Part shown: positions 30,283 through 63,017 of the stretch, piece after piece | Layout of the letters: each line of letters begins with the position of its first letter | How positions within the stretch are numbered: position 1 is the first letter of the stretch | Sequence record: NC_028847.1 | Source of the DNA: Escherichia phage QL01 | Length of the DNA: 64,000 bases | Direction: 5' to 3' (one strand) | Position numbers and translations under genes: made by a program | The notes under the pieces: model-generated | What the model was told of the DNA's origin: nothing | Database searches by the model: none | What the model saw: the letters and a program-made list of their open reading frames with translations, nothing else

Positions 30283-30283
<1 letters not shown>
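30086..30283 (-). CDS. Hypothetical protein
   Basis: Track start is GTG; internal ATG overlaps pseT stop (TAATG). Confidence 0.45.
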
Positions 30284-31483
<1,200 letters not shown>

Positions 31484-33292: not shown

Positions 33293-33321
33293 ATACTAAC
33301 ACGTCATGAGGAGATGTAAAC
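33293..33321 (-). promoter_or_regulatory. Early-type promoter (GTTTAC, 17 nt, TAGTAT) upstream of alc
   Basis: Canonical spacing. Confidence 0.45.
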
Positions 33322-34469
33322 TACTCTACCACAATTTCTTTCAAATATTTTTCAGGGATTTGGGCCTTATGATTTTTCAAGAACACAGAGTTAATCTGGT
33401 CCATGACCGTATCATAATTAATACCGCCTACGTACGCCTGCATAAGAATAGAGAACAACCCTGGGAAGTCCTTAAGGATTAGCTGTCCAGTAACGGCATA
33501 GTCTTTACGGTCGCGACCTTTGAGTTGAGAGTAAGCTGCTTCTAACAAGGCTAATGATTGTTCTAGGTAATCTAAATGGATGCGTTCAAAGGCATCGATT
33601 TTCTCGATAGCAAAGGAATCTGTACTGAACAGACCACGAAGGTCATCAGTTCCACCAGCCACTACAACTTCAAACAAACGTTCGTTGTTGTTAATGGAAT
33701 CTTTGGTATGATGCAGTGCACTGTACCAGGCGGTTTTGAGTTTAAAGAACGTACCATCTTTCAGTACAAAGATGAAACCTTCAATACCTTCTTGTTTACG
33801 GATGTTTTCTACGAAATCACCTTCAGCGAGGTCATAGCTTTCAACCAAATGCTTACGCAGGGCCCCATCTTTAAACAATTCAGCATACGGAATATATTCA
33901 CCTGTTTCATTATTACGAACGTTTAACAGGATGAGGTTTGTTTCTTGGTAAGCCAGCACGATACGGTTGGTAGGTGCTACATATTCAAGGTTGCAGGTAT
34001 ACCCAGCTTTGGTGATTTCTTCTAGACGTGCGGCAAAAGCCTCGTTCTCAGGGAGACGAAGGAACCGTAAAGAATCATGCACCATTGATGAATGGATAGA
34101 GCCTTTAGATTTAACAGAAAGATACTGTCGGTCCATGAATGTAGAAATCAGAGAACCATCTTCCTTAGCCATTACGAGGTCGATATTTTCTGGCGACAAA
34201 TCCAGACCGATAGTCATAGGGTTTTCGTCGAGGTTAAAGAACTTTTGCATAGGACGAGCGGCAATACGTACAGGACCTTTCTCGTCCATTTCAAACATAA
34301 TGCCTCGGCACTCTAGTGCGCCGTCTTCCAACCAATCACTGTATGATGCGTAGTTATAACTAAAGATGCGATAGTTGACTCCTAGAGCACTCTGAAAGTC
34401 TTTAAAGAAGAACTTAGATTTAGTCGAGTTTTTAACCAGGGCCATCAAGTTATCATATAATTCAATCAT
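33321..34469 (-). CDS. rnlA: RNA ligase 1
   Basis: 382 aa; RIFSYNYASYSDW..ALECRGIMFEMD matches recalled T4 Rnl1. Confidence 0.9.
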   Translation of the reverse strand: MIELYDNLMALVKNSTKSKFFFKDFQSALGVNYRIFSYNYASYSDWLEDGALECRGIMFEMDEKGPVRIAARPMQKFFNLDENPMTIGLDLSPENIDLVMAKEDGSLISTFMDRQYLSVKSKGSIHSSMVHDSLRFLRLPENEAFAARLEEITKAGYTCNLEYVAPTNRIVLAYQETNLILLNVRNNETGEYIPYAELFKDGALRKHLVESYDLAEGDFVENIRKQEGIEGFIFVLKDGTFFKLKTAWYSALHHTKDSINNNERLFEVVVAGGTDDLRGLFSTDSFAIEKIDAFERIHLDYLEQSLALLEAAYSQLKGRDRKDYAVTGQLILKDFPGLFSILMQAYVGGINYDTVMDQINSVFLKNHKAQIPEKYLKEIVVE

Positions 34470-48934: not shown

Positions 48935-50056
48935 ATGGAAAGATTTATGGCAGAATTTGGACAAGGATATGTCCAGGTTCCTACATTATCTGAAAACAAT
49001 GCTGTAAGGTATAAACTTAGTATAGCGGGTAGTTGTACTAAGTCTACCACAAAAGCATATGTTAAATTTCAAGATGGGAACTTCGGTTCCCAGAATTTTC
49101 AAAATGGATTAAACCTTATAGAAATCGATGTTAGTGCTGAACCCAAAATAGTGGCTAACAAAACTTATAGTTTTACAAAAGATTTTGATGTTATTTCTGA
49201 AGCTTTTATAACGTATATAAATTCTATACCAGCCAATAGAATAGTTTGTTTAGTATCTTCTGGTAGATTAAATGCTTCACAAAAACTTATCGATTGGTTC
49301 CATGCAGCAGGAAGTACCGCATTTCCATCTAAATGGCTAATAGACCGCTTCGAGCCGTCTTATTCAGCATTTTATGTTTCAGGAAGGAATGCTATAGTAA
49401 TGGAACATGTGCTTTATAATGATGGGGTATTGGTCGAAGATGTTTCTACTCCATTGGAAGTGGTATTTGACGATATCAGTGATGTTGGCGGTACAGGATA
49501 TCCTGTCAGAATTGTTGAAGATGAAAACACTTATCTAAGCAATGAGGGAGATGAAATTAAGCGATTTCCTACAGAATCTCCTACCGCCCCATTAACAGAT
49601 TATAATATGAAACCAGGTGAATTCTTTTATCTTAAGTTTCAATTAATGTGCGACCAAGCTTTAAAAGATGTCGGGACTTCTCAGATGTCTGTTAGATTTT
49701 TTAACGCCTCAGGTGCTTTAACTGGGACAGTTAATATGGACGTTCCTTCCAACGTTCCTGCCGGTGCATGGATGACATTTGAACGGGTAGTAATGGTTCC
49801 TGAAGGTACTACAGACTTTACCCTTTATGCCAGAAAAACAGCTTCGGCTGGCCAAGGCGGAGTTCGAAATGTTATGTTCGGTGAGATATCTGAATCAGAA
49901 CCTCAGCCAAAACCTGCTGAATTTGGTGTTAACGGTATTCGTATGAACTTTGGTACGGAAACTAAAAATATGGGTACTACCATAGCCCAGCTATATGATA
50001 AAACAGGCACTAAACCTGGTCAGGTTTGGGTCGCTGAATTTAGAGAAAAATATTAA
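48935..50056 (+). CDS. 35: Long tail fibre hinge gp35
   Basis: 373 aa; MERFMAEFGQGYVQ... matches recalled T4 gp35. Confidence 0.9.
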   Translation: MERFMAEFGQGYVQVPTLSENNAVRYKLSIAGSCTKSTTKAYVKFQDGNFGSQNFQNGLNLIEIDVSAEPKIVANKTYSFTKDFDVISEAFITYINSIPANRIVCLVSSGRLNASQKLIDWFHAAGSTAFPSKWLIDRFEPSYSAFYVSGRNAIVMEHVLYNDGVLVEDVSTPLEVVFDDISDVGGTGYPVRIVEDENTYLSNEGDEIKRFPTESPTAPLTDYNMKPGEFFYLKFQLMCDQALKDVGTSQMSVRFFNASGALTGTVNMDVPSNVPAGAWMTFERVVMVPEGTTDFTLYARKTASAGQGGVRNVMFGEISESEPQPKPAEFGVNGIRMNFGTETKNMGTTIAQLYDKTGTKPGQVWVAEFREKY

Positions 50057-50085
50057 GGAACCTTCGGGTTCCTTTTTCGTTTTCT
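50057..50085 (+). terminator. Rho-independent terminator after gene 35
   Basis: GGAACC-TTCG-GGTTCC followed by TTTTTCGTTTTC. Confidence 0.6.
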
Positions 50086-58174: not shown

Positions 58175-58200
58175 CAAAAAAGGAACCCGAAGGTTCCTTA
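58175..58200 (-). terminator. Rho-independent terminator after gene 52 and the small membrane ORF
   Basis: AGGAACC-CGAA-GGTTCCT; minus-strand hairpin followed by UUUUUU. Confidence 0.6.
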
Positions 58201-58302: not shown

Positions 58303-59627
58303 AGAGCCTCCAAATCTTTAACATACTCGGTTACAACATCAGTGGTTTTCCAATATTGATGCTCTTCTTTCTTAGCCTTGGCTTCCAAAGCCAGTTTCTT
58401 GGCTTCATCAGAAGTGATATGGAAAATGTTCATGGCCACTAGTTTATCGGCATATTCGCCATAGACTTTATTACCGGTCAATTCTTCGGTTAAAACCTTA
58501 CGGGTCTTACCTTGGATAACCACTACACCATCAATAACATCTTTGATAAATGTGGCTTTAGCCAATGCCAGTTTGAAAGCTTCTTCAGTTTCGATGATTT
58601 TACCATCAATACGTTTCTGTACAAAGGTCTTACGGACCTCAACGAAATCACGAATCAGTTCAACTGCATCTTCGTAAACCTTAAGTTTACCTTTTTCATT
58701 AATGACAGTCAGGTTTTGTGAACGACGTTCGATTAACCCGAAGTCCTTCATGATTTTTTCATGCTTCTTGTTTTCATCAGTAGGCAATTCGTATTCTTTA
58801 CGAATCTTAACCTTGAAGCCGAAACCATTCTCATCACAATCATCATCGTATGTGATATACCCTTTGTCTTCCAGAGGGTCTAATACCTTAGCCACATATG
58901 TTTCACGGTCGTATTTGTATGGGATTTCCGTGATATGCATTTGGGTTCGGGATGTGAACTTATACGTTCCACGAATCTCATAACTACCAGGTTCAATCTC
59001 AACAACTTCACCACGGAATTCAGGATAAGCCACTTTGGGTTTGGTTACTCGTTTTTCCTGAAGAACTTGCAGTACAGCTTTCTTAACAGAATCAAAACTA
59101 TGAGGAAGAATATTAGTTGCATAACCAGTTGCAATACCGGAAACGCCATTAAGAAGAACAGTAGGAATAATAGGCAGATAAAAAGCCGGTGGCTTATGTT
59201 CAACATCCGCATGAACCGGAGCATATTCTGTGTCCTTATAAACTTTTGCAAAGTTACTTCCAATACGAGCAAAAATATAACGAGAGGCTGCAGCTTTTTG
59301 AACCAATCGGGAACCAAAGTTACCTTGACCGTCTAACATTGGATAGTTGTTGTTCCATGTGTTAGCCATCAAAGCCCCTGCTTCCTGAGCAGAACCTTCA
59401 CCGTGGTGATATCCGAGGTCGGCTACACCACCAGCGATAGAAGCCAGTTTGTGGAATTTTTCTTTATTACCACGAGCCATATCAAGACAACGAGCCACTA
59501 CAAAACGTTGTACAGGTTTAAAGCCATCAATCATATTTGGAATGGCTCGGTTTTCGACAGTATACATTGCATAAGCCAATGCTTCGTTGTCGATAATACT
59601 TTTTAAACCACGAGATGTTAATTCCAT
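58299..59627 (-). CDS. 52: DNA topoisomerase II medium subunit gp52
   Basis: 442 aa (T4 gp52 is 442 aa); GyrA-like N-terminus. Confidence 0.95.
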   Translation of the reverse strand: MELTSRGLKSIIDNEALAYAMYTVENRAIPNMIDGFKPVQRFVVARCLDMARGNKEKFHKLASIAGGVADLGYHHGEGSAQEAGALMANTWNNNYPMLDGQGNFGSRLVQKAAASRYIFARIGSNFAKVYKDTEYAPVHADVEHKPPAFYLPIIPTVLLNGVSGIATGYATNILPHSFDSVKKAVLQVLQEKRVTKPKVAYPEFRGEVVEIEPGSYEIRGTYKFTSRTQMHITEIPYKYDRETYVAKVLDPLEDKGYITYDDDCDENGFGFKVKIRKEYELPTDENKKHEKIMKDFGLIERRSQNLTVINEKGKLKVYEDAVELIRDFVEVRKTFVQKRIDGKIIETEEAFKLALAKATFIKDVIDGVVVIQGKTRKVLTEELTGNKVYGEYADKLVAMNIFHITSDEAKKLALEAKAKKEEHQYWKTTDVVTEYVKDLEAL

Positions 59628-59631
59628 AATT

Positions 59632-59772
59632 TTACCATACTAGTGAATGAATAGCCATAATAACATCGGAAATAAAAAGCACAACTTGGATAAGTCCGAA
59701 CATTACTCCGTAATACAGCGCTACTAATAAAGCAGCAAGGGCTAACGAGTAGCCCAGGATTTTATTAATCAT
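59632..59772 (-). CDS. Possible small membrane protein (46 aa)
   Basis: Track ORF starts at TTG; internal ATG overlaps end of upstream small ORF; one TM helix. Confidence 0.4.
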   Translation of the reverse strand: MINKILGYSLALAALLVALYYGVMFGLIQVVLFISDVIMAIHSLVW

Positions 59773-59926
59773 TTTTAATCGTCTTAAGTAAACCGACAAA
59801 AGTAGAAAGAACCCAACCAATAAGCAGAAAACTTAAGAATATCGGACCAGGGGCCCACACACCTAAAAAGAAGCAAACTGAACAGACTATAGCCATAATA
59901 AGTTCAATAAAAACTAGGATAACCAT
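59765..59926 (-). CDS. Small membrane protein (53 aa), possibly ac-like
   Basis: MVILVFIELIMAIVCSVCFFLGVW...; SD GAGGAAAAT; lies between stp and gene 52 where T4 has ac. Confidence 0.4.
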   Translation of the reverse strand: MVILVFIELIMAIVCSVCFFLGVWAPGPIFLSFLLIGWVLSTFVGLLKTIKND

Positions 59927-59936
59927 ATTTTCCTCA

Positions 59937-60014
59937 TTAGCGTCCGAAGACGCCTTTAGTTTTAAGATTGTTACGATAGAACTGCATCACATGCTCGTTA
60001 TGGAAATTACTCAT
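59937..60014 (-). CDS. stp: Stp peptide (25 aa)
   Basis: [25 protein letters not shown] matches my recollection of T4 Stp except for the last residue; ATG overlaps ndd stop (TAATG); coding sequence contains a GCGUCUUCGGACGC hairpin. Confidence 0.8.
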
Positions 60015-60463
60015 TAGTAAGCCTGCAGGATGAATTTAAAGTTATCAGCCAACATACGGTTCATTTCTTCCAGTGTCTGGAGGTCGGAACTATGATTACG
60101 AGTGAAAGCCATTGCAATTTGACCCTTACCAAAACCTGTAGTCAGGGGTTTCATCTTAGAAGCCGGTACATAAAGAACTTCATACACAACACCGTTCACT
60201 GCCATAGTGCGAGCTGATTGAGAACGTTTCTTACGAATGTTAGCCACGATACCGTCGAGCCCTTGGGCCGAACGTTGATTACCGACATAAAAACGAGCCG
60301 CTACGACACGAGAATCAGCGCCGCCTTTAACAAAGAAGTAGAAGCCTGGCTGAGCAGAGATTTCTTTAGAAGGTTTACCATTTTGGTATTCACCGTTCTT
60401 AACATAAGCAACAGTAGTAGCACCAGCAGACAGAACGTTACGGCGAGTCATATAAGTATTCAT
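60014..60463 (-). CDS. ndd: Nucleoid disruption protein Ndd
   Basis: 149 aa; ...[12 protein letters not shown]......[58 protein letters not shown] matches recalled T4 Ndd. Confidence 0.85.
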
Positions 60464-60540
60464 ATCAATTTCCTCAGTAGATTAATGTTTTGTTATCCGG
60501 TCAACGAGAACCATTATAACATGATTCTCGAGGTTGTAAA

Positions 60541-63001: not shown

Positions 63002-63017
63002 GGAGGCCGAAGCCTCC
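63002..63017 (-). other. Intercistronic CUUCGG-tetraloop hairpin, identical to the copy at 25355-25370
   Basis: GGAGGC-CGAA-GCCTCC between rIIB stop and the next RBS. Confidence 0.6.

Follow-up and report, generated by a model that had tools for sequence, protein, structure and literature searches.

The stp gene of Escherichia phage QL01 and the C(UUCG)G hairpin within its last codons: a possible mRNA punctuation element

Background

On the minus strand of Escherichia phage QL01, an open reading frame (ORF) of 25 codons and a UAA stop (ATG to TAA in the ORF list) occupies positions 59937–60014 of the 64,000-nt stretch analysed here (sequence record NC_028847.1; hereafter the window). This locus raises two questions: whether so short a frame is the stp gene known from phage T4, and what role, if any, is played by the hairpin that its last codons can form.

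In reviews of the work of Penner et al. (1995), T4 Stp is described as a peptide that binds and inhibits the type Ic restriction enzymes EcoprrI and EcoR124I (PMC3014915, PMC12707154, PMC12409349). According to the same accounts, inhibition of EcoprrI by Stp in prr+ hosts unmasks the latent anticodon nuclease PrrC, which cuts tRNA-Lys; the cut tRNA is healed by Pnk and sealed by Rnl1 (PMC3014915, PMC12707154, PMC12409349). Loss-of-function mutations in T4 Stp (suppressors) are summarized as clustering at residues 4–14, and deletion of the eight C-terminal codons as leaving both Stp activities only moderately lower (Penner et al. 1995, via PMC3014915). CUUCGG hairpins are described as abundant and mostly intergenic in T4, and a 5′ CUUCGG hairpin is described as stabilizing the gene 32 mRNA (PMC8948821, citing Tuerk 1988, Gorski 1985 and Loayza 1991; PMC4371310).

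Identification of the stp gene

T4 Stp was aligned to the window using tblastn, and the QL01 peptide was found to be identical to it over all 25 residues (25/25; E = 5e-14 in the 64,000-nt window). The terminal glutamine (Gln26) is the sole residue absent relative to the 26-aa translation of the T4 reference gene (NC_000866, 165505–165585). With 72.1 bits (E = 2e-20), the peptide also exceeded the 25-bit cut-off of the Pfam family PF08133 (“Anticodon nuclease activator family”), its residues 1–25 falling on profile positions 1–25 of 26, and it matched PHROG 6763 at E = 1.6e-20. Judged by these scores, the Stp match is far above chance level.

The genomic position agrees with the peptide match. 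The stp AUG shares bases with the stop codon of ndd (UAAUG), and on the early strand the gene has ndd on one side and the ac slot, 52.1 and gene 52 on the other, as in T4 and JS98. After stp, the minus strand carries ORFs of 53 aa (59926–59765), 46 aa (59772–59632) and 442 aa (59627–58299). QL01 Stp thus equals T4 Stp (NP_049878; PF08133, Nuclease_act) in residues 1–25, in the essential segment 4–14, in its position (ndd, stp, small membrane ORF, 52.1, 52) and in the UAAUG overlap, whereas the flanks are far more diverged than Stp itself, QL01 Ndd having 62% identity to T4 Ndd and the downstream gene not being ac. Given the 25/25 identity, the Pfam score above cut-off and the T4-like neighbours, the preliminary description was right to name this ORF T4 Stp; its match holds for sequence identity but not for length, which is 25 aa in QL01 and 26 aa in T4.

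The N-proximal 18 residues, positions 4–14 among them, are intact. Given that removal of eight C-terminal codons is mild in T4 and that the essential residues are 4–14, we infer that the loss of Gln26 should be harmless for QL01 Stp. Its presumed role, inhibition of type Ic restriction and activation of PrrC, is known for T4 Stp alone and is carried over from the T4 literature. Taken as a whole, the 25-codon ORF is very likely stp, in a T-even phage of Dhakavirus type, and its hairpin, which belongs to a known class, may act as an mRNA punctuation or stability element. The identity of Stp, its allele, the hairpin and the synteny are already known from T4-type genomes in public records.

The window also encodes the enzymes of tRNA repair, all on the minus strand. 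The healing enzyme Pnk (polynucleotide kinase/3′-phosphatase) is encoded by pseT at 30283–31191 (89% identity to T4 Pnk), and the sealing enzyme Rnl1 (RNA ligase 1) by rnlA at 33321–34469 (49% identity to T4 Rnl1 in a full-length match). The rnlB gene (Rnl2) lies at approximately 1742–2743 (82% identity to its T4 homologue, full length). Conserved motifs were found in Pnk (the P-loop GCPGSGKS of the kinase and DVDGT of the phosphatase) and in Rnl1 (KEDGS, the Lys99 motif, and FKLKT); we take GCPGSGKS, DVDGT and KEDGS to be the catalytic motifs of the T4 enzymes. The earlier statement that Pnk and Rnl1 are encoded in the same window as Stp is accordingly supported by full-length homologues with intact catalytic motifs, and QL01 carries the complete textbook Stp/Pnk/Rnl1 gene set.

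Phage type and stp alleles in relatives

In a megablast search with positions 59600–60500, identities of 99.6% to LQ5, 96.2% to MX01 and 93.1% to JS98 were obtained. On the strength of these nucleotide identities, the source is a T-even phage of Dhakavirus type.

The 25-aa allele is present in GenBank, where it is annotated as stp in RB51 (YP_002854218), and it also occurs in Bp7, dhaeg and PSD2002 and in two IMG/VR sequences (L005 and L018). In all six, stp has the same length and the same GGCGTCTTCGGACGCTAATGAGGAAAATATG tail as in QL01. The peptide is identical to QL01 Stp in Bp7, dhaeg, PSD2002, L005 and L018, while RB51 Stp differs from it by L17F and is followed by another downstream gene. 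Both IMG/VR sequences share the downstream gene family with QL01, and in L005 an extra ORF separates ndd from stp, unlike in QL01.

T4 itself has a UUCG hairpin in the same stp codons and the same downstream Shine-Dalgarno sequence (SD). The T4 codons CAG UGA correspond to UAA UGA in QL01, and the lowest pair of the stem is G-C in T4 and G·U in QL01. JS98-type Stp (orf257, YP_001595386) comes from the same genus and family as QL01; its hairpin contains a U·G wobble (GGUGUC-UUCG-GACGCC), and its peptide differs in the middle (QWHRHNLKLTGVFGRP), with 19 of 25 residues identical to QL01. Since the JS98 middle differs in this way, QL01 stp is, as far as allele comparison goes, an allele of T4 type set in a Dhakavirus backbone, which makes the arrangement a mosaic.

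Stp-like peptides were found in 797 phage records, siphoviruses among them, and about 50 of the roughly 800 stp loci in the phage collection were read for comparison. The siphovirus peptides (Rtp rtp6, Kagunavirus RP180 and relatives, Bas95, XT34) have a homologous conserved core and a G-V-F/L-G-K tail. Their stp genes differ from that of QL01 in having no hairpin, in a stop codon that overlaps the next ATG (AAAUGA) and in their genomic context.

Operon layout and the downstream gene

A sigma-70/early-type promoter-like site (TTTACA-16-(TG)TATAAT; 11 of 12 matches in a consensus scan) lies upstream of ndd on the minus strand at 60513–60540, where the ndd-stp-...-52 transcript probably begins; the literature yielded no useful transcript mapping of the T4 ndd-stp region. 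It is followed by ndd (60014–60463, minus strand), which encodes the 149-aa nucleoid disruption protein (PF06591). Approximately 100 nt after gene 52, a UUCG hairpin followed by UUUU (AAGGAACCUUCGGGUUCCUU; 58180–58199, minus strand) forms a strong, bidirectional intrinsic terminator that is the probable operon end. From these two signals, the minus-strand operon appears to run from the promoter-like site at 60540 to the terminator at 58199–58180.

The 53-aa ORF (59765–59926, minus strand) contains two hydrophobic stretches and occupies the slot of T4 ac. It belongs to PHROG 9347 (function unknown); a tblastn search with T4 Ac gave no match at 59765–59926, and the ORF had no Pfam match. The name “stp-ac junction” used in the preliminary description therefore does not fit QL01, in which the slot called ac in T4 is filled by another gene family without similarity to T4 ac. 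In T-even phages, the small hydrophobic proteins encoded at this site come from at least two unrelated families. The next gene, a 52.1 homologue (46 aa, DUF7396; 59632–59772, minus strand), has 96% identity to T4 gp52.1 (PF24129) and shares 8 nt with the end of the 53-aa ORF, an overlap also present in T4.

The initiation region of the 53-aa ORF (UGAGGAAAAUAUG; 59924–59936, minus strand) consists of the SD GAGGA (59935–59931) and the AUG (59926–59924). In the alignment, this region is nearly invariant across phages, whichever gene follows.

Structure of the hairpin and evidence for selection

The stp mRNA ends in GGC GUC UUC GGA CGC UAA. Within this end, the 14-nt GCGUCUUCGGACGC (59953–59940) forms five Watson-Crick pairs around a UUCG loop, and a sixth pair, G·U, is predicted between G59954 and U59939, the first base of the stop codon. 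The C(UUCG)G tetraloop hairpin so formed (GGCGUC-UUCG-GACGCU; 59939–59954, minus strand) takes in stp codons 21–25 and the first stop-codon base. In a 43-nt context it reached −9.3 kcal/mol (z = −3.2), and none of 200 shuffles was as stable. When 131 nt of the stp junction were folded, the hairpin was the only element common to the minimum free energy (MFE) and centroid structures; as regards longer-range structure, this fold held nothing beyond the stp hairpin (z = +0.42), and the centroid kept the hairpin alone. That the codons for GVFGR form a hairpin, as had been claimed, is thus confirmed by both structures and by the shuffling result. An Rfam scan of 59500–60500 at E ≤ 10 found no known RNA family, the one match being preQ1-II noise (17 bits against a gathering score of 47 bits, E = 7.5).

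All synonymous encodings of GVFGR were evaluated with weights taken from codon frequencies in the long ORFs of the window. Native stability was reached by 2 of 768 encodings, corresponding to a codon-usage-weighted P of 4.8e-4, a strong result although a post hoc one. Besides GGC, GGA and TTC, the native codons include GTC and CGC, which account for 11% of Val and 11% of Arg codons, respectively. In the siphoviruses (Kagunavirus RP180, Rtp and Bas95 among them), the tails GVFGK, GVLGK and GRLGK are encoded differently (GGA GUG UUU GGA AAA), with −3.8 kcal/mol, z of about 0 and no hairpin. What is conserved in the tail is therefore its amino-acid sequence, and the hairpin comes on top of it in T-even genomes specifically. 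The same siphovirus homologues, which keep the tail without the hairpin, disfavour an origin of the stp tail by read-through into a formerly intergenic hairpin.

Eight distinct GVFGR-type alleles were found among T-even phages, and each retains six of six pairs (48/48 cells). The changes in the stem are limited to GC>GU, CG>UG and UA>UG; three pairs vary, each on one side only, and no compensatory change occurs across the eight alleles, so that the structure is not proven by covariation. All three changes are transitions that give wobble pairs, an outcome fairly often expected by chance. One T-even lineage has a UUUG loop, and in ECP52 the loop is inverted (CGAA) and the peptide tail has become GVRRRQ, with the stem intact. 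T2 and SfPhi01 have another tail (NFGILGFKK) and no hairpin, and the hairpin is therefore not indispensable. Overall, the hairpin has very probably been selected for, as an overlay on the peptide tail.

UUCG hairpins in the window

The window contains 36 copies of the motif CTTCGG (expected number, 19.9 ± 5.0). Stems of at least 5 bp flank 11 of these copies, nine of which are on the minus (early) strand. Six of the 11 UUCG hairpins fall within the 50-nt stop-codon zone, which makes up 3.4% of positions (P = 6e-7, from a crude gene set and in a window that is 93% coding). Four UUCG hairpins, that at 58199–58180 among them, have a U run directly after the stem and are terminators. Three others run straight into an SD and start codon, namely those at 63017–63002 and 25370–25355, both 9–10 nt after the stop codon of the preceding gene, and the stp copy.

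The stp hairpin is an ordinary member of the T4 C(UUCG)G class. It shares with the T4 hairpins the CUUCGG loop, the C:G closing pair, the short G+C stem, the early strand and the location at a gene boundary, its stem reaching into the stp stop codon and the next SD following after 3 nt. It differs in its place, which is inside a coding sequence and not in a spacer. This coding location is its sole unusual trait; the hairpin takes up the last 16 nt of the coding sequence, the least critical part of the peptide.

Possible roles of the hairpin

One account, in which the hairpin is a functionless by-product of encoding GVFGR, is improbable. In its favour, the tail G-V-F/L-G-K/R is conserved at the protein level in unrelated phages, so that the codons are constrained anyway; when G·U pairs are allowed, 7.8% of codon-usage-weighted encodings give a five- to six-pair “stem” in register; and both the missing compensatory covariation and the existence of T2-type phages that live without the hairpin are as this account would have it. 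Native stability, however, requires four rare C-ending or GGA codons and the exact UUCG loop, siphoviruses with the same tail choose other codons, the motif class is enriched and sits at gene ends, and the ECP52 stem survives a change of the peptide. If the hairpin does have a function, it might tune translation of the downstream small membrane gene, through structure at the ribosome-binding site or through termination-reinitiation coupling at the stp stop, which we regard as unlikely. The arrangement would suit such a role: 3–4 nt lie between stem and SD, the next AUG follows the stp stop at a distance of 10 nt (in T4 the stop overlaps the SD, UGAGGA), the hairpin-SD-AUG patch is conserved as a unit and the two further UUCG hairpins named above stand 0–3 nt before an SD. 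Against it, SD and AUG are both outside the stem, and siphoviral stp genes couple by AUGA overlap without any hairpin. The predicted unpaired probability of the segment from SD to AUG was 0.49 for the native sequence and 0.45 ± 0.06 for 150 random synonymous recodings, and these are indistinguishable, 28%–39% of the recodings being as good. A role as insulator or occluder of the ribosome-binding site was rejected on this result, and the earlier suggestion that the hairpin may influence translation of the next gene found no support when the junction was folded, since the hairpin does not change predicted access to the segment from SD to AUG. Termination-reinitiation coupling at the stp stop, independent of the hairpin, is possible.

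Two further alternatives place the hairpin outside translation. That it is a transcription terminator or attenuator, acting on the minus strand between ndd-stp and the downstream genes or on the plus strand against antisense transcripts, is very doubtful, even though at least one GenBank record, that of vB_EcoM_KAW1E185, labels the same hairpin “putative transcriptional terminator, -10.30”. The plus strand is weakly terminator-like, in that the stem is followed there by the weak tail CUUUAGUUUU and the consensus scan lists a plus-strand site. This U-rich tail is missing in JS98-type alleles (..GACACC AGUUAAUUUC), however, so it is not a conserved feature. On the minus strand, the tail UAAUGAGGAAAAUAUG has no U run and the scan made no call, while the genuine terminators of the window have 7–9-bp stems followed by UUUU and a strong bidirectional one is already present at 58180–58199. 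An intrinsic terminator on the sense strand was therefore rejected (tail UAAUGAGGAA without a U run, no scan call). The other alternative, that the palindrome acts mainly at the DNA level as a recombination junction that shuffles small genes beside stp, and is thus a promoter-less relative of the promoter-early stem-loop (PeSL) cassettes of T4-type phages, is a less remote prospect but still a doubtful one. It would explain why stp alleles (FYRNN..KTK or WHRHN..KLT), what precedes them (ndd itself or an additional ORF) and what follows them (genes of at least two unrelated families) assort independently, and why the 31-nt hairpin-SD-ATG patch is 87–100% identical with divergence starting right after the ATG. 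The loop inversion in ECP52 suggests that the palindrome is able to extrude or switch template in DNA, and PeSL stem-loops have been proposed to mediate such shuffling (PMC4122927). Yet any conserved patch acts as a crossover point, which may be a consequence and not what selection acted on; the 5′-most 32 nt of stp show the same degree of conservation; the promoter that the PeSL definition demands between stem-loop and SD is missing; and the preference of the UUCG class for the early strand and for places after stop codons points to a role at the RNA level.

A PeSL is defined as a stem-loop, a sigma-70-like early promoter, and then an SD and start codon (PMC4122927). The stp junction resembles PeSL cassettes (Arbiol 2010, Comeau 2014) in combining a stem-loop with a conserved SD and start codon next to a small ORF that varies, all within a hyperplastic region whose modules assort independently, and differs from them in that its stem-loop is part of a coding sequence and its 3-nt gap holds no promoter. 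Membership in the PeSL cassettes was rejected because the 3 nt between stem and SD contain no promoter-like site. Being the best-conserved stretch amid divergent and reassorted neighbours, the 31-nt hairpin-SD-ATG patch serves as a homology patch, or crossover point, for swaps of the downstream gene, as a secondary consequence.

With the other roles eliminated, and by analogy with gene 32, the reading that we favour is that the hairpin serves as mRNA-stability punctuation in a polycistronic early mRNA; it is a tentative one, held at somewhat less than even confidence. The model for the stp hairpin would be the 5′ CUUCGG hairpin on the T4 gene 32 mRNA. A fast-folding, nuclease-resistant stem would precede the next ribosome-binding site by 3 nt, and cleavage in the AU-rich stretch just upstream of the stem would leave it as a 5′ stabilizer of the downstream message. 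Alternatively, the hairpin could block 3′ exonucleases and so protect the ndd-stp segment. In either case it would neither mask nor notably expose the SD, and it would not act as an intrinsic terminator. The stp stem, at 6 bp, is a modest barrier.

A broader version of this punctuation reading is speculative and, on balance, rather unlikely. In it, the hairpin would be a selected dual-coding cis-element that sets the fate of the early mRNA (through the stability of its segments or their processing, and with it the amount of Stp relative to the downstream membrane proteins), and the hairpin-SD-AUG patch would be a portable docking site for unrelated small membrane-protein genes.

The current understanding of Stp and of CUUCGG hairpins is unchanged by these results. 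The locus is of practical interest in that a peptide tail and an RNA structure share the same codons, which makes it an easy target for synonymous mutations that address the role of CUUCGG in T4 early mRNAs. The junction also recalls the bypass of gene 60, in which a GGA codon, a stop and a UUCG stem are found alike; the geometry differs, and nothing was seen in support of bypassing at stp. In many GenBank records of T-even phages, including those of MX01, KAW1E185, T2 and ECP52, stp has been left unannotated.

The gene after stp

Directly downstream of stp, the position held by ac in T4 was occupied in the window by a 53-aa ORF with two hydrophobic stretches (59765-59926, minus strand), which was assigned to PHROG 9347 and is unrelated to T4 ac. 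Across T-even phages, this slot held at least two unrelated families of small proteins, and every start was located directly 3' of the same TGAGGAAAATATG. Among the stp loci compared with the window (L-numbers), codon 11 of ac was a nonsense codon in the phage T2 record (PV958097.1; L021, ~500-535), and a T2-type stp in metagenomic contig L034 had no stop and ran on into the ac region in a different frame.

Variation and annotation of stp among T-even records

In Escherichia phage ECP52 (ON782582.1; L026, 461-481), the loop of the stp hairpin was inverted, reading GGCGTC-CGAA-GACGCC versus -TTCG-; in this single record the Stp tail became GVRRRQ while the hairpin stem was still intact. The inversion may have arisen by template switching mediated by the hairpin, or it may be an artefact of assembly. 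Many T-even GenBank records (MX01, KAW1E185, T2, and ECP52 among others) left stp unannotated, and in the KAW1E185 record the stp hairpin was labelled a "putative transcriptional terminator".

Stp-like peptides outside T-even phages

Stp-like peptides were spread widely beyond T-even phages, being present in Rtpvirus, Kagunavirus, Nouzillyvirus, and Bas95 (L027, which is phage Rtp, NC_007603, 1-675; also L017, L028, and L029). These copies ended in GVFGK or GVLGK and lacked the hairpin, and the stop of each stp-like gene overlapped the next ATG. In phage Rtp, the stp-like gene was preceded, at a distance of ~450 nt, by a polynucleotide kinase gene. A Kagunavirus-like metagenomic contig, Ga0233370_1000560 (L011, 226-450; L040 is the same contig), carried an in-frame fusion of Stp to the 46-aa protein normally encoded after it, giving a 74-aa product. 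This fusion could be real, or it could result from a sequencing error within an A run.

Other UUCG hairpins in the window

Identical copies of a 16-nt hairpin, GGAGGCUUCGGCCUCC, were located 37 kb apart on the minus strand (63017-63002 and 25370-25355). Both had a stop codon 9-10 nt upstream and a Shine-Dalgarno sequence and start codon 0-3 nt downstream, and their 5' arm was itself Shine-Dalgarno-like (GGAGG). Two copies of the terminator hairpin AAGGAACCUUCGGGUUCCUU (20 nt), each with a U run 3' of it, were present on opposite strands 8 kb apart (50055-50074, plus strand; 58199-58180, minus strand), forming an inverted pair that brackets the intervening block.
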